Source of the DNA: a virus | Lineage: Duplodnaviria; Caudoviricetes | Direction: 5' to 3' (one strand) | Length of the DNA stretch: 64,000 nt | IMG/VR virus record: IMGVR_UViG_3300034106_004043 | In this document: positions 3,576 to 47,707 of the stretch, in pieces | Layout: each line of letters begins with the position of its first letter | Numbering within the stretch: position 1 is the stretch's first letter | The notes under the pieces: generated by a model | What the model was told of the DNA's origin: nothing | What the model saw: the letters and a program-made list of their open reading frames with translations, nothing else | The model's database searches: none | Made by a program: the position numbers and the translations under genes

Positions 3576-4175
3576 TTATCTTACCAAACTAACAAAACCT
3601 TTTTGGTAATGTGGTGTTCCTTTTTCATCACGGTAATACATCTTCCAAGTGTATATACCCGACTCACAATAGTATCCACTGTTATTCACATTACCTGTCC
3701 AATATTGTGATTGTGATTCAATAACACAAACCAGTTGACCCCATTGGGTATAAATCTCTAATCGTGGATTAAACACATTGGTTCCCTTGAAGGAAAATAT
3801 ATCATTCAGCCCATCGTTGTTAGGTGAAAACGAATTGGGAACATAAAGTTTATGACAGGCAGTGGTGGTAATAGTTAAAGAAGCAGTATCAGTACTACAC
3901 CCATTTAAATCCACACCATACACTTCAATCAAATAATTATCAGTGGTATCATCCCAAGTCAATGAAATATCATTGTCGGATTCAACCTGACCTACACTAT
4001 CAACCGTCCAGTAATAAACAACATTGTCTATGTTCTCAACAGAATAGTTATGTGTCTTAAACTCTGAACACATATCAAGCACATTACCATCGTGTGTTAT
4101 CGTTAGTGGTAAAGTATCACACTGTCCAAAGAAGTGTGAGGGAATAAATAATAATACAAATAAAAGTTTTTTCAT
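3576..4175 (-). CDS. Secreted protein with T9SS type B (gliding motility-associated, CHU_C-like) C-terminal domain
   Basis: Signal peptide ending FFG-Q; YVPNSFSPNNDGLNDIF...IYTQWGQLV...WTG...GIYTW...KGFVSLVR. Confidence 0.85.
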   Translation of the reverse strand: MKKLLFVLLFIPSHFFGQCDTLPLTITHDGNVLDMCSEFKTHNYSVENIDNVVYYWTVDSVGQVESDNDISLTWDDTTDNYLIEVYGVDLNGCSTDTASLTITTTACHKLYVPNSFSPNNDGLNDIFSFKGTNVFNPRLEIYTQWGQLVCVIESQSQYWTGNVNNSGYYCESGIYTWKMYYRDEKGTPHYQKGFVSLVR

Positions 4176-4983: not shown

Positions 4984-5031
4984 ATCTATAAATATATGAA
5001 AATGAGTTTTTTTCATAGTTGAACTTAATTG

Positions 5032-5119
5032 AGTGTTCGGTCAGATTCGAACTGACGATGTTGCTATTAACAAAACCAATTTTGCAGATTGGCGGTTTCA
5101 ACCACTCACCCACGAACAC
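5032..5119 (-). tRNA. tRNA-Cys(GCA) with long variable arm
   Basis: gtgttcg/cgaacac acceptor, U73; ccaat-CTGCAAA-attgg; 19-nt variable region; gtcag-TTCGAAT-ctgac. Confidence 0.85.
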
Positions 5120-5760: not shown

Positions 5761-5949
5761 CAATCAGAACAGGATTCGAACCTGTATGATGTATTTCCCT
5801 TACATCTCGGAATTAAGAGTATCATAGAAACAACTTAATCCTACTAACTTACTTGTTGCGTCTACCAAGTTAACATTGACCCCGTAGTGGATTCTAACCA
5901 CATTGTTTTTACATCTAGAACGGGGTTGTTAACATTCCGCCACCTGACT
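5761..5949 (-). ncRNA. tRNA-like RNA A (189 nt) with D-loop insertion
   Basis: AGTCAGG/TCTGATT acceptor; GGCGGAAT...TGGTAGACGC split D arm; ACAGG-TTCGAAT-CCTGT T arm. Confidence 0.7.
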
Positions 5950-6074
5950 ATATTTTATTTCAATAATCTAGACCAAATCTTAATTACCATATCTCTTTGT
6001 GGAGATGGTTTTAGTTTCGACCACCTATCTATCCAATTCTTTATTTGTTCCTGTGTCATTCTTATTTAATCTTG

Positions 6075-6155
6075 CAGTCAGGACAGGATTTGAACCTGCA
6101 TTGTCACCCCTTTATAGTGTACACCGCGAGCTGCGTTACCATTCGCCACCTGACC
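6075..6155 (-). ncRNA. tRNA-like RNA B (81 nt), no canonical anticodon arm
   Basis: GGTCAGG/CCTGACT acceptor; GCG/CGC D stem; GCAGG-TTCAAAT-CCTGT. Confidence 0.7.
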
Positions 6156-6373
6156 TATGTTAAAACACCCTTATCTATCCAACTTACAGGTGTTATGGCT
6201 GTCCTCATTGCTGAGTTAGGAATAAACTGTCTTGCTCCCCTTCGTGATGGGTTTTACCGACCTTAGTAGTCAACTAGAAGGTAATATATATACAAACCTT
6301 CAACTCTTCCCTATGGTTATCATACCATTTCTCATCGTATGGGACATACTATCTGATGATTAGTCAGAACGTG

Positions 6374-6440
6374 TAGTCAGAACAGGATTCGAACCTGCAA
6401 TCTTCCTTGTTAGGAGCTCTGCCAATTGAGTTACCTGACT
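6374..6440 (-). ncRNA. tRNA-like RNA C (67 nt), 4-nt anticodon loop
   Basis: AGTCAGG/TCTGACT acceptor; tcct-AACA-agga arm; GCAGG-TTCGAAT-CCTGT. Confidence 0.7.
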
Positions 6441-6636
6441 ATTTTACTATTAGCTCTTTAGCATTCTACTCCCTGCATGACGGAATTGTATCTTACTTAG
6501 CCCCACGTCCTCAGTACGGGTACCAAAGTTCACTAATAGTTGAGGATGAGAAGTCCTCTGTGTTGTAAGCATATTGTTACTTTTAACAACTTCCTTTTTT
6601 ATCAATACCTCCTTTCTCAAGGGAACAACACGTTTG

Positions 6637-6751
6637 TAGTCAGGGCCGGACTCGAACCGGATAAGTAACCTTACTTCTAATGGAATCTCCAAGTGTCGAG
6701 AACCACTAGCTCTATGGATTTGGGACCGTCCCTCATTACACCCACCTGACT
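6637..6751 (-). ncRNA. tRNA-like RNA D (115 nt), expanded core
   Basis: AGTCAGG/CCTGACT acceptor; TCCGG-TTCGAGT-CCGGC; TATCTTTG promoter element at 6756-6763. Confidence 0.65.
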
Positions 6752-6774: not shown

Positions 6775-7080
6775 TCAATCTACCAAATCTTTTTCCACAT
6801 CTTCATACCATTCTTCAACCGCAAAGATTAATTGAATAAACTCGCAACCATCATCGTCCGATTCATATCTTACGTGGAACCCACCTGTTGATACATCTGT
6901 TTTTTCTTTAAACGCCATCTTTAATAATCGTCTCGCTTCTTGTCTCAATTCAGGAACAGTTGGAATACCTTCGTCAGAAGCCGCCCACTCCCAATTCAAT
7001 ACTTCCATTACTTTTCGGACTTGTTCAAACTTGAAGTAGTCCATTATGCTATCAATAGCATCTTGTTGTTTCTGTGTCAT
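6775..7080 (-). CDS. Hypothetical protein
   Basis: ORF track; typical composition. Confidence 0.75.
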   Translation of the reverse strand: MTQKQQDAIDSIMDYFKFEQVRKVMEVLNWEWAASDEGIPTVPELRQEARRLLKMAFKEKTDVSTGGFHVRYESDDDGCEFIQLIFAVEEWYEDVEKDLVD

Positions 7081-7501: not shown

Positions 7502-7542
7502 AATACAAAGATAAGACAAGTTTATTAATAAAACAAAAAAAG

Positions 7543-7613
7543 TTGTCCCGTCTGGACTCGAACCAGAAATACAACAGTCAAAGTGTTGTGTGATGCCATT
7601 TCACTACAGGACA
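7543..7613 (-). tRNA. tRNA-Gln(UUG)
   Basis: caaca-CTTTGAC-tgttg; full cloverleaf. Confidence 0.92.
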
Positions 7614-7670
7614 ATATGGAGCGTAGTGGGGCTGCAGTCCCCTGAGGCACCTACGCAAGTTACTCCTCTT

Positions 7671-7746
7671 TGGCGGCTCCAACGGGATTCGAACCCGTAC
7701 CACACGGCGTGACAAGCCGGCATTGTAGCCATTCAACCATGGAGCC
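7671..7746 (-). tRNA. tRNA-Asp(GUC), CCA encoded
   Basis: ccggc-TTGTCAC-gccgt; ends GCCA. Confidence 0.92.
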
Positions 7747-7824
7747 AAAGTGGGTGGAATCAGAGGCCTTCTGTCCACCGAGACCTCGTAGTTGACTTTC
7801 GTCAGAGCTTACCGAGACACCAGG

Positions 7825-7897
7825 AGCGGGTTGGGGTAATCGAAACCCCGTCTTCACTTTGGAAGAGTGACATAATGAGCCGTTATACGAAACCCGC
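7825..7897 (-). tRNA. tRNA-Gly(UCC)
   Basis: tcact-CTTCCAA-agtga; U73. Confidence 0.9.
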
Positions 7898-7981
7898 TTA
7901 TAAAAAACCCCATCTTCGTCGGATTAACGGACCGACTGCCATATCGGAGGTGGGGGGTTGTCCTGTTAATTCAGAACCTCG

Positions 7982-8054
7982 TGGTACCAGGTGGATTCGA
8001 ACCACCGACACAAGGATTTTCAGTCCTTTGCTCTACCAACTGAGCTATGGTACC
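7982..8054 (-). tRNA. tRNA-Phe(GAA)
   Basis: aagga-CTGAAAA-tcctt; canonical cloverleaf. Confidence 0.95.
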
Positions 8055-8061
8055 ATTATAG

Positions 8062-8136
<75 letters not shown>

Positions 8137-8143
8137 AATTAAG

Positions 8144-8218
8144 TTCTCACGGTTGGAATCGAACCAACGACCTTTTGTGTATCAGACAAATGCTCTAAGC
8201 CAACTGAGCTACGTGAGA
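8144..8218 (-). tRNA. tRNA-Ile(GAU)
   Basis: tttgt-CTGATAC-acaaa. Confidence 0.95.
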
Positions 8219-8225
8219 ATATTAG

Positions 8226-8299
8226 AGCCTCCAGTCGGAATCGAACCAACGACCTACTGATTACAAATCAGTCGCTCTGACCTGCTGAGCTATGGAGGC
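8226..8299 (-). tRNA. tRNA-Thr(UGU)
   Basis: actga-TTTGTAA-tcagt. Confidence 0.95.
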
Positions 8300-8305
8300 T
8301 TGTTG

Positions 8306-8376
8306 CACGACAGTAGGGACTCGAACCCCAAACAACGGTTTTGGAGACCGTGATGATACCATTTCACCACTGACGT
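8306..8376 (-). tRNA. tRNA-Trp(CCA) with 8-nt anticodon loop
   Basis: acggt-CTCCAAAA-accgt; G73; one mismatch each in acceptor and T stems. Confidence 0.75.
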
Positions 8377-8383
8377 GTTTAAG

Positions 8384-8458
8384 TGACCCCGGTGGGACTC
8401 GAACCCACGACTCCCTCATTAAAAGTGAGGTGCTCTAAACCTGCTGAGCTACGAAGTC
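8384..8458 (-). tRNA. tRNA-Lys(UUU)
   Basis: cctca-CTTTTAA-tgagg. Confidence 0.95.
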
Positions 8459-8468
8459 ATTATTTTTG

Positions 8469-8540
8469 CGGTGATGGGGAATTTCGAAATCCCGACCCTC
8501 TGATTAACAGTCAGATGCTCCACCTCTGAGCTACATCACC
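8469..8540 (-). tRNA. tRNA-Asn(GUU)
   Basis: tctga-CTGTTAA-tcaga; G73. Confidence 0.93.
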
Positions 8541-8564
8541 ATTTTCCCAATATGTCAAAGAACC

Positions 8565-8601
8565 AAAAAAAAACCCTGAACTTTTTTGTAGTCCAGGGTT
8601 T
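8565..8601 (-). terminator. Intrinsic terminator upstream of the tRNA array (candidate attenuator)
   Basis: aaaccctggac/gttcagggttt 11-bp stem then U-tract on the minus strand. Confidence 0.8.
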
Positions 8602-8623
8602 CCTTATATATTTGATGATACGA

Positions 8624-8737
8624 TTACATCTTATTAAGAACCCTGAACTTACGGCAATCCTGCCCCTTAATCGTAAACCATGATTGGCCCACGTTTGTCG
8701 GGAGATTACTTACGTTATGTGTTGAGTTCTGTTTCAT
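8624..8737 (-). CDS. 37-aa putative leader peptide MKQNSTHNVSNLPTNVGQSWFTIKGQDCRKFRVLNKM
   Basis: Manual translation; between promoter and terminator; contains a copy of the terminator 3' arm at 8639-8650. Confidence 0.65.
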   Translation of the reverse strand: MKQNSTHNVSNLPTNVGQSWFTIKGQDCRKFRVLNKM

Positions 8738-8766
8738 TGTTTTCTTATTAAATATCAATTGTTTTA

Positions 8767-8797
8767 CAAAAGTAATATAAATTTCTTCTTATGTCAA
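8767..8797 (-). promoter_or_regulatory. Bacteroidota-type promoter for leader and tRNA array
   Basis: TTGACA then TACTTTTG (TAnnTTTG), 20 nt after the TTG. Confidence 0.75.
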
Positions 8798-15857: not shown

Positions 15858-16910
15858 TTATTTAATAATTCTTGTTGTGTAAAACTTACCACTATCGTCA
15901 GTAAGAGTAATAACATAAGTTCCATTACTTAATGTTTCAGAATCAAACTGAATGTTGTTAGTAAAATATTTTTCTTGGTGAACACATCTTCCGTCGATAG
16001 ACATAACTCTTAACGTTCCACTATTTGATGGTGTGTTAATATTAACAATACCTAACACAGGGTTTGGCCAAACTTTAACGTTATTAGTCATTGTTTCTTC
16101 AACCCCAATTATAAATTCAGGAACAACGTTTAAGGTATAATCATTTAAAATTCCACCCGGTGTCCAAACTCCATTACTATCAATTGAAAAGTTTATTGAA
16201 GTATAAACCTGACAACCATTAATGGAAATTGCGTATAAGTTAATCGGGAGCATTTGTGAAGTAAACGTTGAGGTAGGGAATGTAATGGTTGGGTATTGTT
16301 CGTTTGAACTCGTCCCATTTCCTCCATTTCCAAAAAACCATTCCCATTCTACAGTATTTGAACCTTGGTAAACCACGTAAATAGTGTTTGGTTCAGATAC
16401 AAGTGAATCAGGAACAAAGTACAGAGTATCAATTGTCGGCATTGCCTCAATTAAACCATCACAGTTGTTATCAATACCGTCATAACATAGTTCAGGTGCC
16501 CCTGGATAGATATATGGGTCAAATGGATTACAGTCAATGTTATCCATGAACCCATCAAAATCTGAGTCTTGGTTTTGAAGTACTATCGTAAATGTCTGAA
16601 CACCTTGTCCTGACCCAAGATATATTGTTTCATTTATACAAGTCTCACCTAAACATGGTGAAGTATAAATTGCACAGATACTAACATTTAGACTATCAAT
16701 TGCTGGTACAACTGCAACATAACTTCCTGTAGGTTGTTGTGTTAAAGTAATACTACCTTGAATACCACCTCCATAATAGTTTCCGAACAATGTGTATGGA
16801 CATCCTCCGAGGTTAATTATATCAACGTTAAAAGACGTTAATACTTGTGATGATGCACTCATTCCAATGAATGCGAAAAGGGTTAAAAGAAATAATTTAA
16901 TTTTTTTCAT
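15858..16910 (-). CDS. Secreted protein with MopE-like metal-binding motif, PKD-like segment and T9SS type A C-terminal domain
   Basis: Signal peptide ending ASS-Q; PGAPELCYDGIDNNCDG; WEWFFGNG; VWPNP...SIDGR...LSNGTYVI...RIIK. Confidence 0.85.
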   Translation of the reverse strand: MKKIKLFLLTLFAFIGMSASSQVLTSFNVDIINLGGCPYTLFGNYYGGGIQGSITLTQQPTGSYVAVVPAIDSLNVSICAIYTSPCLGETCINETIYLGSGQGVQTFTIVLQNQDSDFDGFMDNIDCNPFDPYIYPGAPELCYDGIDNNCDGLIEAMPTIDTLYFVPDSLVSEPNTIYVVYQGSNTVEWEWFFGNGGNGTSSNEQYPTITFPTSTFTSQMLPINLYAISINGCQVYTSINFSIDSNGVWTPGGILNDYTLNVVPEFIIGVEETMTNNVKVWPNPVLGIVNINTPSNSGTLRVMSIDGRCVHQEKYFTNNIQFDSETLSNGTYVITLTDDSGKFYTTRIIK

Positions 16911-18322: not shown

Positions 18323-19343
18323 AAAAAAACCCGTCAATTGACAGGTCAGATTAGAAAAGCCTGAGATTACAGCTTATGTTAAGAAACTTTTGAAGGATTA
18401 TTGTTTCCCTTCGTATCCACCACCTTTTGGGTAGTATTTCTTAGTGACGGTATTTTAGGTGTACCACTCCTTGAGGTTTGAATTACTCTATCAGTACTTA
18501 ACTCTTTCCGAGGTTGCCACCCCAGTTCGTCCTTGCGGGACTAAAGGTTTTTCTTAACAATACACATTGACTTGGGGTCTCTGTATGCAATGAACGGCTC
18601 ATTACTATGTAGTCACCTTTCACTCAAACCTGATGGACACTTTTCCTTTGTTATTTTGTAATAATTTTAGGGTTGTGTTGTAGATGTGTCAGAGTAGTGG
18701 TCCAACATAAGCTCTGTCTCCTTTTGAGCGACAGAATACTAAACTACTCCGTGAAGTGTCCCCACCTCCATATTTCAAGATTACTTCATAAAGAGACCTT
18801 GGTAGGTCTTCCTTAGGGATAGTAGCGACACCACTCGTTCTCCATCTTACCTTTCGGTTTTAAGTCCTCTATCATATTGGGACCCGCAATAGTGTAACTG
18901 GATGGTCACATTTCTTACAGAGTTCCTATGGGTTATTCTTATCGTTCTTCCGAACTCAACTTGAGAATCTACTTTCCCAAGTCACCCAACCATTTTCCCT
19001 ACGAAGTTATCCTCGGTACTTACGGTGTGGTGATATCCCACTTGTGTACTTGAGTTCAATTCCCCTTACGGGGTTTCAAACCGCAGTCTCCTCAACACAG
19101 GGGAGACCACTTTATCCTACTTTCGTAGTTTATTTAAGGACCATACACGGCCCATTATCGTTTATCAGTTACACTCAAGCTGCGGACTTTCTGCCATTTA
19201 CTCGGTGGATAATATCACCGACACTTTGTGTTTCCTGAACGGATAATCTTTTTGTTTCAAAGAACGCTTTTTCAAAAAGAGAAGAAGGAGGAATCTTTAC
19301 AACCTACCGAAGTAGGAATCTTTACAACCTCTTCATCTCAAAT
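18323..19343 (-). ncRNA. Large (~1 kb) structured non-coding RNA
   Basis: No credible ORF; GC-richer; minus-strand GAAA, GUAA and UUCG tetraloop hairpins; promoter upstream and terminator at 18323-18346. Confidence 0.75.
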
Positions 19344-19349
19344 CTTTTA

Positions 19350-19482
19350 CAAACTTACGACTTTTTTTTCTTTCTGTCAAGTAGTTTGTGAACTTTTTTT
19401 TTGATTTAACTACCGAGTATCTTTCATCCCCTATGAGTGTTAAATCTTTTACAAACTTACGGCGAATATTCCGTAGTGTCAA
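19350..19482 (-). promoter_or_regulatory. Tandem Bacteroidota-type promoters for the large ncRNA
   Basis: TTGAC...TAAGTTTG twice (-7 boxes at 19350-19357 and 19452-19459). Confidence 0.7.
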
Positions 19483-35612: not shown

Positions 35613-35774
35613 ATGGAAAATTTAAAAAAAACCGAAGAAAAAAAATGTACTAAATGTGATAAAATGAAACAAAGTATCGTTCCTCAAGTCGCAATTGGGG
35701 TGTTAGTATTTAGTTTCACTATCTATGGTATAGTTGAATTTGTTAAAGACATTATTGAATTACTTACCAAGTAA
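35613..35774 (+). CDS. 53-aa CxxC plus transmembrane protein
   Basis: KCTKCDK...VAIGVLVFSFTIYGIV. Confidence 0.55.
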   Translation: MENLKKTEEKKCTKCDKMKQSIVPQVAIGVLVFSFTIYGIVEFVKDIIELLTK

Positions 35775-37892
35775 TTCAATAATTTTATCTTTTACCATCT
35801 CAGATGTTATCTTTTTAGAACATTCAAACATTTTATCATTCCCCTTATTTATTGGACACCAATTCCAATCACCTGGGTCTAATCTAAACTTATTTGCACA
35901 TCCTCTACAAGTATTTTCAGGTGCACTAACTTTATAAACATTATCATAAGGTTCGTTAAACTCTTCAGTAAATCCTGAAATCAATACTGTTGGGATATCC
36001 AAAGCCCAAGTAACCCATGAAATACCACTTGATATTCCAATAAAGAATTCACAGGTAGATAACTCTTCAATCAGTTTATAGATTGAGCCAGAAGGGTTTT
36101 GTTTAGCACCTTTAGGATAAAAATTACCCATATACCCATCTTCCTCTTTTGAATAAATGATTACCTCATAACCAAGAGATATAAGATAATCAGTAATTTC
36201 TTGCCATCCTTTTGGGTTATTCCAATATTTGGATTGAGCGGTTGAATGAATACCCAATCCAACTCGTTTTTTCTTTAACTTGTTAGGGTTTTTAATTAAA
36301 GGTTTTACTTCCTTATATTCCAAACCTAAAATGTCTGTCGCGGTTTTTTGTAATGGACCTAATTTAAAGTCACTTGGGTGTCTATCAGTTTTAACATTAT
36401 CACCATCGTAAAACCAACCTATCTCATACATTGCGTATAGGTTATCAACCGTACTGCCAGGGGGGACAAATTGTATTTCAGGATATTGTTTTACAAACAA
36501 ATCGTTAAAGAATGTTGAACAGATAACCTTACAATTATGTTTTTTTCTAAATTCCTCAGCGTAAGGTGCCCAAGCGAATGTATCACCTAAAGATTTAGAA
36601 TCTAAAGCGATATATACTCGTTTGTTCTCCGCATTATATTTCTTTTCACTAATTAAATTACCTTCAGAGTAAATTTTTAAAGTATACTCATCAAAATATT
36701 TCTTACTTAATCTGACCCACATATTACAACCAATCTCCTCACGATATTCACAGTCACCACTCTGATTCCAAAACTCAACCAAATATCGTTTATCACTATT
36801 ACCCTTAATTTCAACTAACGCTCCGTTGATATAATGATTAATTACTTCAATTTTTTCAACCATCTCTTTTGGTTTTATTTCAGTATTTTCAAATACTTTA
36901 TCAAATCTTTGTTTTGTCTCAAGACTATTCAAATTTTTTCTACTGTTAATAAGGTCTTCATAAATTCTAACCATCCTTTTAGTAATAACACTCCAATCGT
37001 ATTTTTGTCTATCTAATTCAGTGTTATTTAAATATAAATCATAATTGTCAATTACTTGTTTAATACCACTAACTATTTGATTTACATCTCTTTCAACTAT
37101 AACCATTCCTTCTATTGTTTGTGAACCCAAATAAGTACCAACAACGGGTATATTACAAGATACCGCCTCTAATAATGTTAGGTTTGGATGTCCGGCTTCC
37201 AACATAGATGGATGTAAGAAGATTGAATGACTTTTATATAGTTCTAATATTTGTTCTTCATTTGGATTTGAGAACATTAAAGTTAACTTATCGTAATTTA
37301 ATAAGTCATTGTGATGTTCAAAGAATATTCTGTTATTTTCAGGACCAGCAACAGTAATAGGTAAATCTAATTTGATTGCGGATTCAATCGCATATCTAAA
37401 TCCTTTTCTATCGTAGGTTGAATCACCACCAATACCATTGTTTGCTAAACACAATAATTTATGTTCAGTTCTTTTTGGATTGTCATTTTTAAAGAAATCA
37501 GTATTAACACCATGTGATAGATAGAACAACTTATCTGTCTCATCAAAGTAATCAACTAAAAACTCAGCGTGGGTGAAAGATATCACAGACCTTTTAATTG
37601 CTTCTAAATTTTGTTGGTAGTTAGATGACTCCTTACCGTAATAAACAACGTGGTGGTCATGTAATGAGAAGATATAAGGGATACCTCTATTTGCCGCTTC
37701 AATAGCCAAATTAGCCATATGAATATGAATAATATCACTACTGTTAGTATCTACCTCATTAAGATATTTTATATCACATTGGTGTCCTAACTCTTTAATA
37801 TTGTTGTAATATTCCCATATTACTTTTTCAACCGCCCCCCAACCATTTGGTGGTATTGTAATAATTCCAGGTGTTACTTGTGTAATTCTCAT
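35760..37892 (-). CDS. GT4-like glycosyltransferase fused to autotransporter O-heptosyltransferase-like (Aah/TibC) domain
   Basis: PPNGWGAVEK, EAGHPNLTLLEA; DSKSLGDTFAWAPY...CSTFFNDLF...YPEI; FFIGISSGISW. Confidence 0.85.
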   Translation of the reverse strand: MRITQVTPGIITIPPNGWGAVEKVIWEYYNNIKELGHQCDIKYLNEVDTNSSDIIHIHMANLAIEAANRGIPYIFSLHDHHVVYYGKESSNYQQNLEAIKRSVISFTHAEFLVDYFDETDKLFYLSHGVNTDFFKNDNPKRTEHKLLCLANNGIGGDSTYDRKGFRYAIESAIKLDLPITVAGPENNRIFFEHHNDLLNYDKLTLMFSNPNEEQILELYKSHSIFLHPSMLEAGHPNLTLLEAVSCNIPVVGTYLGSQTIEGMVIVERDVNQIVSGIKQVIDNYDLYLNNTELDRQKYDWSVITKRMVRIYEDLINSRKNLNSLETKQRFDKVFENTEIKPKEMVEKIEVINHYINGALVEIKGNSDKRYLVEFWNQSGDCEYREEIGCNMWVRLSKKYFDEYTLKIYSEGNLISEKKYNAENKRVYIALDSKSLGDTFAWAPYAEEFRKKHNCKVICSTFFNDLFVKQYPEIQFVPPGSTVDNLYAMYEIGWFYDGDNVKTDRHPSDFKLGPLQKTATDILGLEYKEVKPLIKNPNKLKKKRVGLGIHSTAQSKYWNNPKGWQEITDYLISLGYEVIIYSKEEDGYMGNFYPKGAKQNPSGSIYKLIEELSTCEFFIGISSGISWVTWALDIPTVLISGFTEEFNEPYDNVYKVSAPENTCRGCANKFRLDPGDWNWCPINKGNDKMFECSKKITSEMVKDKIIELLGK

Positions 37893-38575
37893 ATTAAACT
37901 AAAATTTTCATTTTTTCTTTTATCATAAGTTTCCCTATCTGTTGAAGCATATTTTTCATTCTCAATATCTAGTTCATCCATTGACCCTGGGTTAAAATAA
38001 TAATGTTTATGTAAATAAATAAAATCACCAATATATGTTATTTTATTTAAAATTTTACCGACTTGAGTAAGTTCATCATCACAGTAAAAAGAATAATAAA
38101 TAGGGTTAAATATATAACCAAATCTTTCATAATATTTTCTACCCATAACAGGATGTGTACAAATTAATTCATTTTGTATACCATCAGGAAAATGTAAAAT
38201 ACCGTCTAAATCAGGGTAAAACTCTAACATATATTTTCTAATATGTAAATCAATATTTTCTTTAGGAAATTCAAAATCGTCAGCAATATTCATAACAATA
38301 TCCCAATCAGATATTTTATTAATATTATAATTTGTGGCAATTATTTTACCTTTAGAGTCCGATGAAAATACTTTTATAATACTTGAATATCTATGATTTA
38401 AAATAAAATTTTTAATTTCATCTGAATTCATTGTATCATCGTCATTATCTATTGAGACTAAAATTATACAATTTTCATAATCGTATAATTTATCACATAA
38501 CTCATTAATTACATTAATAAATTTTTTAGGTCTACTCCTTGTTGCAAAATTAAATAGGATTTTTAAATTTTTCAT
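37889..38575 (-). CDS. GT-A fold glycosyltransferase
   Basis: FATRSRP, SIDNDD, NIADD, FYCDDE. Confidence 0.75.
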   Translation of the reverse strand: MKNLKILFNFATRSRPKKFINVINELCDKLYDYENCIILVSIDNDDDTMNSDEIKNFILNHRYSSIIKVFSSDSKGKIIATNYNINKISDWDIVMNIADDFEFPKENIDLHIRKYMLEFYPDLDGILHFPDGIQNELICTHPVMGRKYYERFGYIFNPIYYSFYCDDELTQVGKILNKITYIGDFIYLHKHYYFNPGSMDELDIENEKYASTDRETYDKRKNENFSLI

Positions 38576-38576
38576 A

Positions 38577-39317
38577 CTATTTTGTAAAAACTTTATATTC
38601 TTTATCTATAAATGACTCACCATCTACTTGAGTTGTTATTCTTTTATTTAAAACACCCATGGTCAATCTTTGTTCTGAACATATTATATTGAAAAACGTG
38701 TCAGCACAATCCCATCTATGTGTTCTCAACTGGTTCATTATTGTTTTACGTGATTTCTTTGAAAACATTATACATTGTAAACCAATTATTTTATTTGTAA
38801 TAAACAATAAATCTTGATTTGGTATTTCCCTAACCACATCAGATTGGTGCCATCCATAATCTAAGGTTTTAGTATCACCGAATGAAAAATAAGAAATGTC
38901 TTCCTGATTAACAATACTACACACCTGATTAACTTTATCTATAAACTCCTCAATCGGAACTTCTATAATACAATCACCTTCACAGACAATTAAGAAATCT
39001 AAATCATTATCAAATTCAGATAAGATACCTATTTTAAATGCTTCAAAACATCCGTAGTGAGCCGGTGTTAAAGCGTTACCATATTCAGGGTCATTAACAT
39101 CTTCATACTTACCCATTCTAACATTATGTGGTCTAACACTAGTATGAATTGGAGGTAAAGAAGCATATAACTCGTTCTGATGTAAAACATATTCAATACC
39201 ATAAGGGATTACCTGTTGTACAGATTTTCTTGATTCTTTTTCTCTATGTTCATTCTGTGTTGTCTGTAAATGAACTAATTTAATCTTATAATTCATATGA
39301 TTTTTTACGGTCTCCAT
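38577..39317 (-). CDS. GT25-like glycosyltransferase
   Basis: AHYGCFEAF, IVCEGDC, GLQCIMF, WDCADTF. Confidence 0.65.
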   Translation of the reverse strand: METVKNHMNYKIKLVHLQTTQNEHREKESRKSVQQVIPYGIEYVLHQNELYASLPPIHTSVRPHNVRMGKYEDVNDPEYGNALTPAHYGCFEAFKIGILSEFDNDLDFLIVCEGDCIIEVPIEEFIDKVNQVCSIVNQEDISYFSFGDTKTLDYGWHQSDVVREIPNQDLLFITNKIIGLQCIMFSKKSRKTIMNQLRTHRWDCADTFFNIICSEQRLTMGVLNKRITTQVDGESFIDKEYKVFTK

Positions 39318-40900
39318 AATCCAATACCACCAAACCCTTGTGAGTGTTGACCATTTAATTTAACATTACCAGATGACTTAGTACATACTAAATTAATTTT
39401 TGTACCTTCATCTAAATCTTGCCAAAATTTATAAACCTGACCGGCGTAACTATCGGCGAATATATGGTTAGGGTCAATGTCGTGGAAACCAATCACACCA
39501 CGTGGTGATAATAAATTTTTATATAATTCAAAATCATGTTTAACACCATCATATGTGTGGTCACCATCAATAAAAATAAAATCGTATTTTGGACAAAAAT
39601 CTTTTACTTGTTCAAACATATCTTTAGTATGTGAGTCCCCTTGGAAGAATTTCCAATCTTCTCCGTGCATAAAATGATGTATAATTGATTGTCTTGGTTC
39701 AATATCTACTGAAACTTTCTTACCCGTTGATAGTTTTGACATCAACCAAAAGGTACTACCCATTGTCCCAATTTCTAATATATTATGAGGTTTAAACCCT
39801 CCTAGCCAATAGGATAATGTTAATATTTCTTCATACACCTGCATGAAAATACATTTTTCCATCAAATCAAAATCCAAACAATAATCCACTAACTCTTTTG
39901 GTTCATTAGTTTTTATAATATTTGTTTTTGTTGATTTAGAAAGTTGTTTAGATAATAAATTCACTATTGAATCGTAATAACGAATATGGTGATTATTATT
40001 ACATAGTTTAGATGTGTCAACTAATCCATCAGGTAGTGTATAGTCTTTAGTCCAATCCAAATATTCAATAAAACCAATTTTATTTTTCCAATATGTATCG
40101 AATAATTTAAAACAAAGTTTTCTATCATCTTCAGTTCCTAATATATATTCATATAAAAATCCATCTCTCATCGGTGGATTAGGTGACAATATAACAATAC
40201 GATTATTATAAATTTCTTTAATTTTTAAAATTGAATTAAAGTAACTATCCATCAACTCTAAACAAGCTTCTTTTAAAGTAATGTTCTTGTTTTCACAATG
40301 TTTATGAATTGTGTATCTGAAATCTATCTCACCCAAATAGAACACTAAAACATCTTTTTCTTGTATCGGAAGAGAATCAAGTAACCCTAAGAAGTCACCA
40401 TTAACAAATCGATTTAAACTTAATGAAGTCTGACTAACCCTTATAGGTACATGTCTCCCTACCCTATCAAATTTATTATTAGTATCGCCAAAACTAGCCC
40501 AAGCGTTTGAATCCCCTATAATCCAAGCTCTTTTAAGATATTCAGGATTAGATAAAGAATGATTACGCATTTCAAAAGATTTATGGTGAGTCTTAATTAC
40601 CTCATCATATATTATTTGATTAGTACTTAAATCTTCAACTTTAATTCTAACACCAAATTTTAAATTAGGTTTTTCATTATTATCAATTTCATCAACACTA
40701 AATCGAGTCCAAAAATTAATATTATTTGGAATTGTAACAGTGTCCGAACCTGGTATGTATTCGATATTAAAAAATGGGTCTAGTATAGTTAATTTTATAG
40801 TACTTTCATTACTGATTGGATTTTCAACACTATAATGTATTTCACAAACAGATTCTGTAATTAATCGTTTTTCTTCCAATCTAATTAAATTAAACTTCAT
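39305..40900 (-). CDS. SGNH-like domain fused to class I SAM methyltransferase
   Basis: IIGDSNA, GEIDFR, NNHH; ILEIGT, FIFIDGDHTYDGVKHDF, GFHD. Confidence 0.75.
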   Translation of the reverse strand: MKFNLIRLEEKRLITESVCEIHYSVENPISNESTIKLTILDPFFNIEYIPGSDTVTIPNNINFWTRFSVDEIDNNEKPNLKFGVRIKVEDLSTNQIIYDEVIKTHHKSFEMRNHSLSNPEYLKRAWIIGDSNAWASFGDTNNKFDRVGRHVPIRVSQTSLSLNRFVNGDFLGLLDSLPIQEKDVLVFYLGEIDFRYTIHKHCENKNITLKEACLELMDSYFNSILKIKEIYNNRIVILSPNPPMRDGFLYEYILGTEDDRKLCFKLFDTYWKNKIGFIEYLDWTKDYTLPDGLVDTSKLCNNNHHIRYYDSIVNLLSKQLSKSTKTNIIKTNEPKELVDYCLDFDLMEKCIFMQVYEEILTLSYWLGGFKPHNILEIGTMGSTFWLMSKLSTGKKVSVDIEPRQSIIHHFMHGEDWKFFQGDSHTKDMFEQVKDFCPKYDFIFIDGDHTYDGVKHDFELYKNLLSPRGVIGFHDIDPNHIFADSYAGQVYKFWQDLDEGTKINLVCTKSSGNVKLNGQHSQGFGGIGLWRP

Positions 40901-40904
40901 ATTA

Positions 40905-41702
40905 TTATTCTGATTTATTTATTGTATAAGCACTTGTTGATGGTTCAAAACCTAAATTGATAATGTGGAATCTTTTATGACATAAAGATTTATATTTTTT
41001 TGACCACCTTTCAGCAAATTCCAATTCAACTTTAGTTTCATTTGGATTGAATGTTGTTGAAAATTCCCCTATTGACAATAGTTTTTTGACATTATGAACA
41101 CCAGGTCTTAATGAAAAACTTGGCCAGTTAATATATGTTAACCATAAGTCAGGTGTTTGAACTACTTGTAATGCCGAAACATCATCATAAAATAAATTAC
41201 AATTCAATGGTAAATTTGGGTCATAGTACCACTCCCAATAATTTTCATATTCAACAGGTTTGATATTATCAGGAAATTTTTTAAAACTCTGAGAATATCC
41301 AAAATAAGCATAACCATTATTTAAACTTAACGCATCTATCGCTTCAGTAATCTTGAATAAATCCATAAAAAGATAATCATCCTCCAATAAAAAACAATAA
41401 TCAGAATCAGTCTCGATTAATTTATCTCTCCAAGAATTTAATACTCTAGCGTGTCTAAAATTATCAGGAAATGAATTCGGGTAAAAGTGAGTGATGATTT
41501 TGTTTGTATTTGGAAAATAATCATTTAGTAATTTTTCCATTTCTCTTTTATCGTCATTATTAGATGAGTCGTCAAAGAAAATTATATCATCTATTATTTC
41601 CGTATCTAAACAAAAAACAGAAAATGCTTTAATAACACGTCTTAAGAAATGTAGTCTTTTACAAGACATTATTGTTAAAGATATTTTTTTATTATTATAC
41701 AT
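40905..41702 (-). CDS. GT2-like glycosyltransferase
   Basis: TIMSCKR, FFDDSS, FLLEDDY, FSLRP. Confidence 0.7.
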   Translation of the reverse strand: MYNNKKISLTIMSCKRLHFLRRVIKAFSVFCLDTEIIDDIIFFDDSSNNDDKREMEKLLNDYFPNTNKIITHFYPNSFPDNFRHARVLNSWRDKLIETDSDYCFLLEDDYLFMDLFKITEAIDALSLNNGYAYFGYSQSFKKFPDNIKPVEYENYWEWYYDPNLPLNCNLFYDDVSALQVVQTPDLWLTYINWPSFSLRPGVHNVKKLLSIGEFSTTFNPNETKVELEFAERWSKKYKSLCHKRFHIINLGFEPSTSAYTINKSE

Positions 41703-41718
41703 TTTTTAAATTTTAAAA

Positions 41719-43455
41719 TTAAGAAAATACCACATAATCAAGAATATTTTCATTTATAATATCGTATAAAAATTCATTTGTCTGAGTGTCATATACCGAT
41801 ACTTTTTTAATTTCACTATTAAAAATATTAAATGACCAATGACCATAATTTTCCAAAGTATAATAATAAGTTTCATTACTATCATCTAAAAAATTAACAA
41901 TTATTTTTCTTTCTGATTTAAAATTATTGTAATTATACGATAATACCATTTTAGAATCTTGTCCTAAAATATTATAAATTTTAATTGAGCATCCGTTAAA
42001 CTTTGATGATATATTACTAACTGTCGTTTCAGTATTCCAAATCGTACCCACAAAATCTTCATTCATGGATATTTCACCATTTTTTCTAATCAAAAATCCA
42101 TTATCTTTTTGATTAATATTGTGATAAAGATATTTTTCAACATTAATAAAATCAGTACCAAATCCATTATTTTGTAAATAATTTTTATAATCTTCCTCAC
42201 AATTAATCCTATTAATTATCTGTTGGAAGTATTCTATTTCACAATAAAAATAATGGAACGAAACATCTCTACCTTCATTAAAATAAAACATTCCCTTTTT
42301 GTTTTGAGTAGAACAAATCACTGGTACAGTTGTCATATATTCATAACCTTCTTCACTATATAAATCATCAACTTCAATTCTTTGGAAATGTGTAAACCCA
42401 AATGACTTACACAAATCTAATGAGTTAAACAAATTAACCATAACAGGTAATCCATGTTTTTGTATTGTATTTGTAACTTCATGAGTTGTTAATGAACCAA
42501 GGTTTTTCCAAAAAATAACTGGTTCGGAATTAGTGTATTCACCTTCAAAAAGAATGTTATTTGAGTTATATAAATGATAATCAACAATTTTTAATATATG
42601 TTCAGGAACAATAGTATTAGACACAAGAAGTATTGTATGGTTATACTTTTTTAAGTTATTAATACATAACTCCAACTTATTTAAAACATTTTCATTATGG
42701 ATAAAACAATCGACTATTGTTATTGTTTTAAATTCATCTTTAATATTTTGTCTTTTGAGTTCATTAGAAACTATTATGTTTTTTTTGTTTTTTTCTTCTT
42801 CCGAAATATTTGAAAACATACCATCATTTGATATTCGATAAATTCCCCCACATTTATGAATACACTTAATTAAACCGTGTTTACTAATTTCATAATTAAG
42901 CGGCCAATCAACATAAGGTAAATTTGTAAAATAATCTTTAATTAAATTTGGTATGTTTCTAAATACCCTCGCAAAAGATGCATGATTAATAGTTAATAAA
43001 TCATCTGTAGTTATATCGTCAAGAAATGAACTAATAAACAATTCAGGAACTGTAGGTATCTTGGTACCATCGGGATGCAAATATCTTGTTCCTGTACAAA
43101 CCATACTATAATTTGGACTGTTCTCTAAAAATTCAACTTCTTCATTTAAGATTGTATAATTATCAAAATAATCATCTCCGTCAATATAAGCAATGTATTT
43201 TGTTTTACAGTAATTTAATAAAGTTCTAATATTTTCAAAACCTCCTAAATTAGTATCACCATTTAAAATTATTAAATTAGGGTATTTTTCTTTTAATTTA
43301 ATTAAAACATCTTTAGTATTATCTGTCGACCCATCATCCCTTACTATCACATCAAACCCATAATTAATTTTTTGAGAGTATATTGAATCAATACACTCTT
43401 CAATATATTTTTCAAAATTATAAGATGGTACTACTACCGTAAGTATTTTTTTCAT
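41719..43455 (-). CDS. GT2 glycosyltransferase with C-terminal extension
   Basis: VVVPSYN, DDGSTD, YIDGDDY. Confidence 0.88.
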   Translation of the reverse strand: MKKILTVVVPSYNFEKYIEECIDSIYSQKINYGFDVIVRDDGSTDNTKDVLIKLKEKYPNLIILNGDTNLGGFENIRTLLNYCKTKYIAYIDGDDYFDNYTILNEEVEFLENSPNYSMVCTGTRYLHPDGTKIPTVPELFISSFLDDITTDDLLTINHASFARVFRNIPNLIKDYFTNLPYVDWPLNYEISKHGLIKCIHKCGGIYRISNDGMFSNISEEEKNKKNIIVSNELKRQNIKDEFKTITIVDCFIHNENVLNKLELCINNLKKYNHTILLVSNTIVPEHILKIVDYHLYNSNNILFEGEYTNSEPVIFWKNLGSLTTHEVTNTIQKHGLPVMVNLFNSLDLCKSFGFTHFQRIEVDDLYSEEGYEYMTTVPVICSTQNKKGMFYFNEGRDVSFHYFYCEIEYFQQIINRINCEEDYKNYLQNNGFGTDFINVEKYLYHNINQKDNGFLIRKNGEISMNEDFVGTIWNTETTVSNISSKFNGCSIKIYNILGQDSKMVLSYNYNNFKSERKIIVNFLDDSNETYYYTLENYGHWSFNIFNSEIKKVSVYDTQTNEFLYDIINENILDYVVFS

Positions 43456-43467
43456 TATTTATCCCTA

Positions 43468-43836
43468 TTATTTTTTTAGAATTATTGCATTCCCCTCAAT
43501 TAAAATTTCATCATCTTTAAAAATTATTGTTTTTAAAAAAAACTTATTTCCGTCTTTTTTATCAAGTTCTACAATCACCTCAATTTCATCATTAATAAAA
43601 CAAGGGTTTTTAAAAATCAAATTTTGTTGTAGATATATTGAACCCTTACCAGGATATACTTCAGATATCAATCTTGAAAAAAAGGAACTTAATAACATCC
43701 CGTGAGCAACTCTTTTACCAAAAATAGTTGATTTAGCGTATTCCTCATCTAAGTGTATTGGGTTTTTATCTCCTGATAACTCAGAGAAATCTTTAACCAT
43801 ATCTTCAGAAATTAAAATTTTTTCAGATACTCGCAT
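43468..43836 (-). CDS. MaoC-family (R)-hydratase/dehydratase
   Basis: FSELSGDKNPIHLDEEYA...RVAHGML...PGKG. Confidence 0.92.
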   Translation of the reverse strand: MRVSEKILISEDMVKDFSELSGDKNPIHLDEEYAKSTIFGKRVAHGMLLSSFFSRLISEVYPGKGSIYLQQNLIFKNPCFINDEIEVIVELDKKDGNKFFLKTIIFKDDEILIEGNAIILKK

Positions 43837-44375
43837 TCTAAATTTATTATATTTTTTTTTCTATCCTTTATTTCTTTAGCCGGTATTCCAACCGCAATTT
43901 TAGACTCAGATATGTTTTTATTTACTAATGATAAACTACCTATAGCACTATAATCTTCAATCTCAACATTTGGTAATATTATAGTACCCGCACCAATAAT
44001 AACATGTTTACCTAATATGACTTTACCTGAAATCACATTTGTAAATTCTTTATTAACTGTGGGATTTGTCATGAATTCCCCACTATAATCATCTGTTGAT
44101 GTATATATGGATACTCTAGAAGATAGTCCTGAAAAATCTTTCATTACAATTTCTTCATTACCCATTAAACTACAGAAAATTGCAATATGGACATTATTAC
44201 CTAACTTAATTCCTCCATTACCAGCACTTATCACACAAAAATCATCAATTCTAACATTATTACCCAATTCAATATTTTTAGGATTATAAATTGAACATCT
44301 ATTAGAAATTAAAACATTATCCCCAATAGATTTGAAACCTATTTCGACCAACTCATTTTTACTATAAAATCCCAT
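43812..44375 (-). CDS. Left-handed beta-helix sugar acyltransferase
   Basis: IELGNNVRIDDF, IKLGNNVHI, GKVILGKHVIIG, GIPAK. Confidence 0.88.
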   Translation of the reverse strand: MGFYSKNELVEIGFKSIGDNVLISNRCSIYNPKNIELGNNVRIDDFCVISAGNGGIKLGNNVHIAIFCSLMGNEEIVMKDFSGLSSRVSIYTSTDDYSGEFMTNPTVNKEFTNVISGKVILGKHVIIGAGTIILPNVEIEDYSAIGSLSLVNKNISESKIAVGIPAKEIKDRKKNIINLECEYLKKF

Positions 44376-45028
44376 TATTTTTTATATATTTCAAATTTTG
44401 ATAAGTCAGGATATGGTAGTTCCAAATCTTCATTATGTTTAGGTGTACCATCCATGTTATAAAATTGATTCATAAGTAATAAACCTCTTGAAGCAATTTC
44501 AGGCATCATGTAAAAATTCCATCCTAACATATCAAAATTATCATCATGATACGATACTTCATTCCTACCTGAATATCTCGCTCGTTTAAACCACTTGTAA
44601 GCCTCAAAATCGTCAGTTAAGATTGCACCACCTTTACCAAGTTTTAAGTGTTTATATGGGCCTGTAAATGATAAACACATATGTGTTCCTGGTATATACA
44701 TATCACTTGTAAATCTTAATGCCGAATCCCAAACATTTGTTGGTGATAGTTGATACGCTCCTTTTAATGTTGACCCATAAACAGGTTCAAACTCGACTTT
44801 ACCTCCAGCGTGGATAATCTCGCAAGGTACTGACGGGTATGTTCTACTTGGTATTTTAATTGTTTTACCATTAATTTTCTCATAATACAACGCTAAAAAT
44901 AAAGCGTTACTTTGATTATCAACTGTAACAGCATATGGTGCACCAGCATATTCAGCTAATTGTTCTTCAAATTTTTTTGTGACATCGTAAACCGATGATG
45001 ACAATGTACCAGGTGTTCTTAATTTCAT
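44375..45028 (-). CDS. Compact DegT/DnrJ/EryC1/StrS aminotransferase
   Basis: FEEQLAEY, WDSA, SFTGPYKHL..GKGGAIL, GWNFYM; only 217 aa. Confidence 0.8.
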   Translation of the reverse strand: MKLRTPGTLSSSVYDVTKKFEEQLAEYAGAPYAVTVDNQSNALFLALYYEKINGKTIKIPSRTYPSVPCEIIHAGGKVEFEPVYGSTLKGAYQLSPTNVWDSALRFTSDMYIPGTHMCLSFTGPYKHLKLGKGGAILTDDFEAYKWFKRARYSGRNEVSYHDDNFDMLGWNFYMMPEIASRGLLLMNQFYNMDGTPKHNEDLELPYPDLSKFEIYKK

Positions 45029-45029
45029 A

Positions 45030-47636: not shown

Positions 47637-47707
47637 ACCTAAAAAAAATAACAATATTTATTTCATAAATCCATAGAATATAGTATCTTTACAAAAAAAT
47701 ATACACA

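Follow-up and report, generated by a model that had tools for sequence, protein, structure and literature searches.

A candidate leader-peptide attenuator in front of the main tRNA array of a giant lake-water phage

The DNA analysed here is a window of 64,000 nucleotides from the IMG/VR virus record IMGVR_UViG_3300034106_004043 (Duplodnaviria; Caudoviricetes). A cassette of ~230 nt at 8565–8797 was found directly in front of the main tRNA operon; it comprises a promoter, a 5′ untranslated region (UTR), an open reading frame (ORF) of 37 codons and a terminator, and both cassette and tRNA array are read on the minus strand of the window, to which all coordinates without a contig name refer. In silico, the cassette showed conserved parts, a signature of translation and competing RNA helices. 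We regard the chances as evenly balanced that it is a ribosome-mediated leader-peptide attenuator in the style of trp, which gates the tRNA operon by sensing general decoding speed. The signal would most likely be the overall decoding speed over 28 different codons, and not the supply of the tRNAs encoded downstream. The cassette may thus work like a leader-peptide attenuator, but it was not assigned to the classical attenuator family because a run of cognate codons is missing.

The promoter, the 37-codon ORF, the 11-bp terminator and the order of the ten tRNAs were all found where an earlier note on this DNA, made from the letters alone, had placed them. The –33 element TTG(ACA) (8792–8797) is invariant in 21 aligned variants of the cassette, and the –7 element TACTTTTG (8767–8774) matches the Bacteroidota type TAnnTTTG. 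The A-rich 5′ UTR, counted from a predicted start site (8738–8762), begins with GTAAAACAATT, which is common to other promoter-proximal leaders of this phage family. The ORF (8624–8737) starts with ATG at 8737, ends with TAA at 8626–8624 and encodes the peptide MKQNSTHNVSNLPTNVGQSWFTIKGQDCRKFRVLNKM. Within it lie region 1 (AGAACUC, codons 3–5, 8724–8730), a leader hairpin domain (8651–8715) made of a lower helix and a 9-bp apical helix (8693–8685 with 8680–8672), and region 2 (AAGUUCAGGGUUCUU, codons 30–34, 8636–8650), the putative antiterminator strand. According to the folds, region 3 (8590–8605) consists of the terminator 5′ arm with an A/G-rich extension, and region 4 (8565–8583) of the 3′ arm with a T9 tract. 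The 11-bp core of the terminator stem was formed by the 5′ arm AACCCTGGACT (8600–8590) and the 3′ arm AGTTCAGGGTT (8582–8572) around a loop at 8589–8583, followed by nine T at 8573–8565; with A/G:U extensions, a terminator scan drew 16 pairs. The distance from the ORF is 19 nt to the scan-drawn stem and 23 nt to the arm of the 11-bp core. Region 2 contains an exact copy of a 12-mer of the terminator 3′ arm, AAGTTCAGGGTT, which the earlier note had also pointed out. It occurs exactly twice in the 64 kb, at 8650–8639 (codons 30–33) and 8583–8572; with one mismatch allowed, 4 matches were found against 0.44 expected. Behind the terminator follow a block kept across variants, GGTTCTTTGACATATTGGGAAAAT (8541–8564), with a boxA-like core GTTCTTTGACA, and the array of ten tRNAs (7542–8540), in the order Asn, Lys, Trp, Thr, Ile, Pro, Phe, Gly, Asp and Gln.

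Further cassettes were collected through neighbouring proteins, two DNA patterns applied to viral contigs, one pattern applied to metagenome contigs and two predicted peptides. This yielded 31 distinct sequence variants from the ATG to the T-run, all from freshwater phage contigs, and in 44 of 44 distinct downstream contexts a tRNA lay directly 3′ of the cassette. The concern that the leader might not be conserved, which the earlier note had voiced against its own proposal, was not borne out. The first tRNA, which may be Asn, Trp, Lys or Pro, began in most contexts 26–44 nt past the T-run, whichever tRNA was leading. The exceptions were a distance of 102 nt with a marginal tRNA-like insert, one case of 273 nt, and the most diverged relative, whose tRNA-Pro is split. 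Conservation extended from the –33 element to the first tRNA, and the sequences upstream of –33 were unrelated between contig groups. There was one cassette per locus, and it was absent from more distant phages retrieved via the downstream protein. In the window no second such cassette was found: the Ser-Leu-His-Cys block and a lone tRNA-Phe are without mini-ORF and terminator. A DNA search of GenBank phages gave no relatives of the leader, with matches to tRNAs only.

Two of the spacing exceptions have features of their own. In L036 (3206–3276) and other contigs of the L002 type, the T-run and the boxA-like block are set apart by a 76-nt insert, which is tRNA-like but marginal (27.4 bits with the Rfam tRNA model, 29 needed) and was not called by ARAGORN. 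In the complete 294-kb relative (L023:2210–2930), the leading tRNA-Pro is split after the anticodon region by ~650 nt encoding an ORF of the HNH type; this may be an intron or an inserted homing endonuclease.

The leader ORF appears to be translated, because it is intact, shows a frame-specific ratio of nonsynonymous to synonymous changes (pN/pS) and a third-position bias, and has a favourable start context. All 31 variants kept 37 codons with unchanged start and stop and no indel, and indels were present in the untranslated parts. The pN/pS value, calculated over all pairs of 24 distinct ORF sequences for codons 1–31 only (the 3′ end being anchored by the search pattern), was 0.29 in the ORF frame versus 1.73 and 2.20 in the other frames. 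On the tree of the variants, parsimony assigned 13 events to first, 23 to second and 46 to third codon positions (p = 2e-5). The context of the ATG at 8737 was among the best 0.45% for ATGs of the window and scored above 90% of the starts of long phage ORFs. This coding signature, computed from the sequences, speaks against the other doubt of the earlier note, that the leader might be untranslated. These patterns suggest that the identity of the amino acids, or that of the tRNAs reading them, is under selection.

The leader RNA also folded far better than its shuffles (z = –4.3). Small stable RNAs are found in the tRNA cluster of T4, and a stable non-coding small RNA with its own promoter and terminator, in which the ORF is fortuitous, would agree with such a structured RNA, with its atypical codon usage and with the fact that gene callers seldom predict the ORF (two protein clusters only). 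But the three-base periodicity of the substitutions, the frame-specific pN/pS and the excellent start context would not be expected of it, which makes this explanation highly improbable.

The codon usage of the leader was unusual. Its mean log relative adaptiveness was –0.88 versus –0.36 ± 0.12 for 37-codon windows of phage genes, and 0 of 2701 such windows were as low. There were 17 G/C-ending codons against 7.3 ± 2.9 expected, and 28 distinct codons (p = 0.02). This bears on the main rival explanation, according to which the cassette is an ordinary small-protein gene that has a partly leaky terminator of its own: the product would be the 37-aa peptide, the tRNAs would be transcribed by constitutive read-through, and the complementarity between leader and terminator would have no regulatory role. 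The purifying selection on the peptide, of which 21 of the 37 residues are invariant across variants, speaks for such a gene, as do the lack of a regulatory codon run and the fact that the leader does not follow the content of the array. A codon usage unlike that of every 37-codon window of the phage genes speaks against it. So does the lack of homologues: an exhaustive phmmer search and a search with the 44-aa TTG-extended ORF found the peptide nowhere outside the cassette, returning only cassette variants and low-complexity noise. The spacer from the stop codon to the terminator was as strongly conserved as the ORF itself, which would not be expected of a mere protein gene either. Together with the results on RNA pairing and on the terminator given below, these observations make the small-protein gene unlikely, though it has more in its favour than any other rival.

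The folds revealed three alternative helices. In the minimum free energy fold of the ribosome-free leader, AGAACUC of region 1 (8730–8724) was paired with GGGUUCU of region 2 (8643–8637), the hairpin domain 8715–8651 was present and the terminator (3:4) was formed. The 1:2 helix of 7 bp would act as an anti-antiterminator. With a transcript ending short of the 3′ arm, or with codons 1–10 under a mask the size of a ribosome, region 2 was paired with the terminator 5′ arm by 14 pairs. In stepwise folds, 1:2 was formed once region 2 had emerged and yielded to 2:3 once region 3 had emerged. The full-length states differed by 2.2 kcal/mol only (–49.6 kcal/mol with 2:3 forced and –51.8 kcal/mol with 3:4 and 1:2), and such nearly isoenergetic folds are a further point against a plain protein gene. 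In ribosome-masked equilibrium folds, whose outcome is model-dependent, the antiterminator was obtained with stalls at codons 1–10 and 23–25, but not with stalls at codons 14–21. The geometry of the trp and his attenuators claimed in the earlier note was recovered as far as architecture is concerned, with the predicted 1:2 helix as an element that had been missed, but not with respect to a cognate codon run.

Comparison of the variants supported the antiterminator pairing via the leader copy that the earlier note had put forward. Region 2 was the best leader partner of the terminator 5′ arm in 21 of 21 aligned variants. The energy of the 2:3 duplex ranged from –14 to –24 kcal/mol versus –9 ± 2.3 kcal/mol for shuffled leaders, and was comparable to the –19 to –22 kcal/mol of the terminator itself. 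In 20 of the 21 variants 2:3 was far above shuffles (fraction ≤0.005), with a weaker value for L107 (0.025), which is hard to reconcile with complementarity of no regulatory role. The exact 12-mer repeat was limited to the window-like clade, and its left half was altered in three diverged clades. L022 has acquired a new 16-pair helix with one bulge through four changes in region 2 combined with two in region 3, one of the latter costing the terminator one pair. The L108/L113/L135 clade pairs GUGGU or GUAGU with ACUAC. Compared with random left halves, the pairing of the left half had p values of 0.014 for L022, 0.05 for the L108 clade and 0.69 for L107. The antiterminator pairing was hence re-created in a new register in two of the three diverged clades, again unlike what a small-protein gene would predict. 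A pairing of AGGGTTCTT with AAGAACCCT may be shared by the homologous 37-codon cassettes of related genomes.

The leader sequence appears to be under coding and structural constraint at the same time, because the terminator pairs and the apical helix were maintained, partly via nonsynonymous changes. Across the 21 variants the 16 pairs of the terminator were kept; seven pairs showed compatible changes on one side, and a single cell was broken. In the apical helix of the leader hairpin, 5 of 9 pairs varied and 11 of 13 changed cells could still pair; the changes included C-G to U-A in L114, nonsynonymous but pair-preserving ones in L108, and G-U to A-U or G-C. Such a hairpin, conserved through pair-preserving changes that are in part nonsynonymous, together with the highly conserved spacer and the bistable folds, would also suit a factor-dependent switch, in which the leader hairpin or region 2 would be the target of a phage or host protein, a small RNA or a tRNA whose binding selects the terminator or the antiterminator, translation being secondary. 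In the leader, however, no Rfam family reached its gathering score (no T-box; rnk_leader scored 27 bits where 50 are needed), no candidate binding protein was linked to the cassette, and the coding periodicity indicated that the reading frame matters. We therefore consider a factor-dependent switch quite improbable.

The sequence behind the terminator was informative about the way in which the tRNAs are transcribed. The block GGTTCTTTGACATATTGG after the terminator was conserved whichever tRNA came next, and its boxA-like core matched the consensus GYTCTTTAANA at 10 of 11 positions, this consensus being gamma-proteobacterial (PMC5725501) and the host of the Bacteroidota type. The T-run and the boxA-like block are at most 1 nt apart. 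A second promoter between the terminator and the first tRNA was not found: there is no TAnnTTTG and no room for one, and the TTGACA present there is part of the boxA-like block. With such a gap and no room for a promoter, the polymerase that makes the tRNAs must pass the terminator. So strong a terminator without a promoter behind it would starve the array if it belonged to a protein gene only. It has been reported that boxA acts on the RNA of complexes begun upstream, and that the boxA:NusB:S10:NusG network is conserved in Bacteroidota and nucleates the rrn complex, which blocks Rho and interferes with intrinsic termination (PMC13753749). The position of boxA behind the terminator would keep the terminator effective, as expected if the terminator is a regulatory gate.

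The boxA-like motif was found in other units of the phage as well. The window contains a second exact copy, GTTCTTTGAAA at 19265–19255 in the leader of a GOLLD RNA, and no others. The complete 294-kb relative has five copies, which lie without exception on the transcribed strand; the opposite strand has none, and a control pattern gave no match. Each copy lies just past a promoter, with a small hairpin between the two in two units, and the copies precede GOLLD, tRNA blocks and one protein gene. The other tRNA and GOLLD units of the phage family consist of a promoter, a small hairpin and boxA, without ORF or terminator. Because these boxA units lack them, the ORF and the terminator were regarded as an addition to the main tRNA unit. 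The copy at L142:1075 (about 254374 in G001), GTTCTTTGAAA, stands directly after a promoter, with 17 nt between it and the ATG of a protein gene, so that not every boxA-like copy precedes a non-coding RNA. The GOLLD RNA of the window (18358–18751, minus strand, with a leader up to about 19482) was recognized by Rfam RF02032 with 322 bits against a gathering score of 150 bits. It is preceded by tandem TTGACA-N-TAAGTTTG promoters (19482 and 19380), a CCTACTTCGGTAGG hairpin and the boxA-like GTTCTTTGAAA; the same GOLLD arrangement is present in the 294-kb relative, followed there by tRNA-Met.

The earlier note had drawn attention to codons 17–27, GQSWFTIKGQD, and indeed 10 of these 11 residues are served by the array. 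The enrichment it read into this stretch did not exceed chance, since 14.5% of the 37-codon windows of phage genes held a stretch as rich (p = 0.15). Over the entire leader, 23 of 37 residues were array amino acids versus 20.6 ± 3.1 in such windows (p = 0.28), and 17 distinct amino acids were reached by 18% of the windows. At the codon level, under standard wobble rules, 22 of 37 codons were readable by the array tRNAs versus 16.8 ± 3.1 (p = 0.06), and 26 of 37 by all 15 tRNAs of the window (p = 0.024, uncorrected). Codon-level decodability was thus slightly raised; the signal is weak and hinges on the assumed wobble rules. It is correct that neither the leader nor the tRNA set of the window includes Ala, Glu or Tyr, as had been noted, but Met, Val and Arg are present in the leader without a tRNA in the window, and the leader is the same in relatives in which Ala, Glu and Tyr tRNAs are encoded. 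The tracking of each genome's tRNA set by the leader codons, another check proposed in the earlier note, was not seen: an identical peptide stood ahead of arrays ranging from 5 to 12 tRNAs, some of them devoid of tRNAs for Asn, Lys, Thr, Pro or Gly, and co-variation between the leaders and the arrays of the variants, including Ala and Met codons versus Ala and Met tRNAs, was negative or confounded.

According to the mechanism proposed in that note, the ribosome comes to a halt at codons 17–27 once starvation or anticodon nucleases have removed host tRNAs, and the replacement tRNAs are induced. The slightly raised decodability would agree with such an array-matched sensor, and W20, I23, G25, Q26 and D27, which are invariant, correspond to core members of the array. 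These invariant codons overlap RNA helices, however, and the phage family encodes tRNAs for nearly every amino acid, so that any peptide would appear to be served. With an amino-acid enrichment at chance, even in the best 11-codon stretch, a leader that stays the same ahead of differing arrays, Ala and Met codons that do not follow Ala and Met tRNAs, and no preference for the antiterminator upon stalls at codons 14–21, stalling at codons 17–27 by loss of array tRNAs is not supported, and we hold a sensor of this kind to be rather improbable. The position of region 1 would imply that a delay anywhere in the ORF, and not a stall at 17–27, is decisive. A link to anticodon-nuclease defences is pure speculation.

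The attenuator that we prefer would work as follows. The transcript would start from the Bacteroidota promoter, and the 114 nt after the UTR would be the translated ORF, which is rich in codons that the phage avoids. If no ribosome is loaded, region 1 would pair with region 2, the terminator would form and transcription would stop before the tRNAs. If a ribosome arrives quickly at the end of the ORF, region 2 would be covered and the terminator would form again; a ribosome of the usual footprint size at the stop codon would be expected to cover the 3′ half of region 2. If a ribosome on the ORF lags behind the polymerase, region 1 would be masked and region 2 free, and 2:3 pairing would allow read-through. 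Both the direction of regulation and the ribosome footprints are predictions. The polymerase past the terminator would then transcribe the boxA-like element, which Nus factors might bind, become probably Rho-resistant and continue through the untranslated tRNA array. As a more specific and more tentative version, somewhat short of an even chance, the cassette could be a homeostatic meter of decoding speed, in which the 28 mostly rare codons time the ribosome against the polymerase and only a lag leads past the terminator and, via boxA-dependent antitermination, to transcription of the tRNA array. In that case translation itself would set the supply of tRNA through feedback, a kind of control not described for tRNA genes.

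Several observations weigh against an attenuator. The leader has no run or tandem of regulatory codons, the defining feature of classical attenuators. The purifying selection on the peptide (pN/pS 0.29) goes beyond what a pure sensor needs and fits a functional small protein, and the rare codons may merely reflect the G + C required for the helices. Region 1 and the right half of region 2 are invariant, which leaves the 1:2 helix without covariation support, and the L107 clade retains only the invariant 9-bp 2:3 helix AGGGUUCUU:AGGAACCCU (–14 kcal/mol). The conservation is in part built in by the search patterns used. Finally, contigs from RNA libraries covered the leader at a depth of 2–5, and two of them crossed the terminator, which fits read-through or carry-over of DNA equally well. 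Leader parts were contained as assembled contigs in four metatranscriptome runs, and one contig extended upstream of the promoter.

The host is very probably a freshwater member of the Bacteroidota, because the window encodes type IX secretion system (T9SS) sorting domains, the gene starts lack Shine-Dalgarno (SD) sequences and have A at –3, and the promoter is of the TTG...TAnnTTTG form. Bacteroidota sigma-A promoters have a –33 TTG and a –7 TAnnTTTG about 19–21 nt apart. The promoter of the cassette, with TTG, 20 nt and TACTTTTG ahead of its presumed start site, fits this form; the –7 variant TAACTTTG of L030 and L037 still matches TAnnTTTG, and in front of the GOLLD RNA the design TTGACA-N19/20-TAnnTTTG appears again, at 19482 and 19380. 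T9SS sorting domains scoring above the NCBIfam cut-offs were recognized in two proteins of the window, one of type B (3576–4175, minus strand; TIGR04131, 40.9 bits) and one of type A (15858–16910, minus strand; TIGR04183, 43.9 bits). The DNA runs containing the window are lake-water metagenomes, and related IMG/VR contigs reach 242 and 294 kb, one relative being a complete virus record of 294 kb. A search of bacterial genomes with the invariant 21-mer matched three Bacillaceae that had only this word in common with it, and hence gave no clue to the host.

Other features of the window were observed in passing. The spacers of the array, of 57–83 nt, at 7614–7670, 7747–7822 and 7898–7980 (minus strand) are unusually long, and RNA-library contigs of relatives join 7820 to 7904, representing variants without tRNA-Gly. 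A run of tRNA-like elements with a common acceptor/T-arm top half is located at 5761–6751 (minus strand); those at 6075–6155 and 6374–6440 scored 38 bits with the Rfam tRNA model, ARAGORN called none, and a promoter-like TTG-N20-TATCTTTG lies nearby at 6786–6756. The tRNA-Cys(GCA) at 5031–5119 (minus strand) is 89 nt long, implying a long variable arm that is unusual for bacterial tRNA-Cys. Large multi-domain glycosyltransferase/methyltransferase genes (GT1, GT2, GT9, FkbM, Methyltransf_24) are clustered at 35760–47654 (minus strand).

Leader-peptide attenuation is textbook knowledge for amino-acid operons, and to our knowledge there is essentially no account of how phages regulate their own tRNA genes. 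In full-text searches of the literature no report was found of attenuators ahead of phage tRNA genes or of leader-peptide attenuation of tRNA genes. What is new would thus be the application of attenuator-type control to tRNA genes, the kind of control itself being known. If the proposed attenuation is true, large phages would gauge the translation capacity of the host directly and supply tRNAs on demand. This would bear on why phages carry tRNAs, on their means of overcoming mismatched codon usage or defences that target tRNAs, and on the protection of untranslated operons, with the terminator first and boxA second. The compact cassette could also serve as a translation-speed sensor.

Among known systems, pyrBI likewise reads how near the ribosome stays to the polymerase, with no codon run specific to an amino acid. 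Its ORF continues through the terminator, and termination is prevented by close coupling; in the cassette the ORF ends before the terminator, and the predicted logic is opposite. T-box riboswitches likewise choose between terminator and antiterminator by tRNA status, but the cassette is translated, gave no Rfam match, and specifier-loop and T-box motifs were not evident. The antitermination leaders of rrn operons also have a boxA motif, bound by NusB/S10, before long untranslated RNA genes (PMC5725501, PMC13753749), whereas the boxA-like motif of the cassette lies behind an ORF and a terminator and not directly behind the promoter. Sinorhizobium trpL/peTrpL provides a precedent for a leader peptide or an attenuator RNA with a function of its own (PMC6614838, PMC7968998). 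Close parallels are the enterobacterial leaders trpL, hisL, thrL, ilvL, pheL and leuL; the design principles of leader-peptide attenuators of amino-acid operons have been analysed (PMC1183508). Like the cassette in its predicted form, they have a short, promoter-proximal, translated ORF, three overlapping helices (1:2, 2:3 and 3:4) with an intrinsic terminator before the regulated genes, and a stop codon placed such that the finishing ribosome covers region 2. The cassette differs from them in having no codon run cognate to its product, in regulating tRNAs instead of biosynthetic enzymes, in residing in a phage of an SD-less Bacteroidota-type host, and in combining a peptide under purifying selection with a boxA-like element after the terminator.

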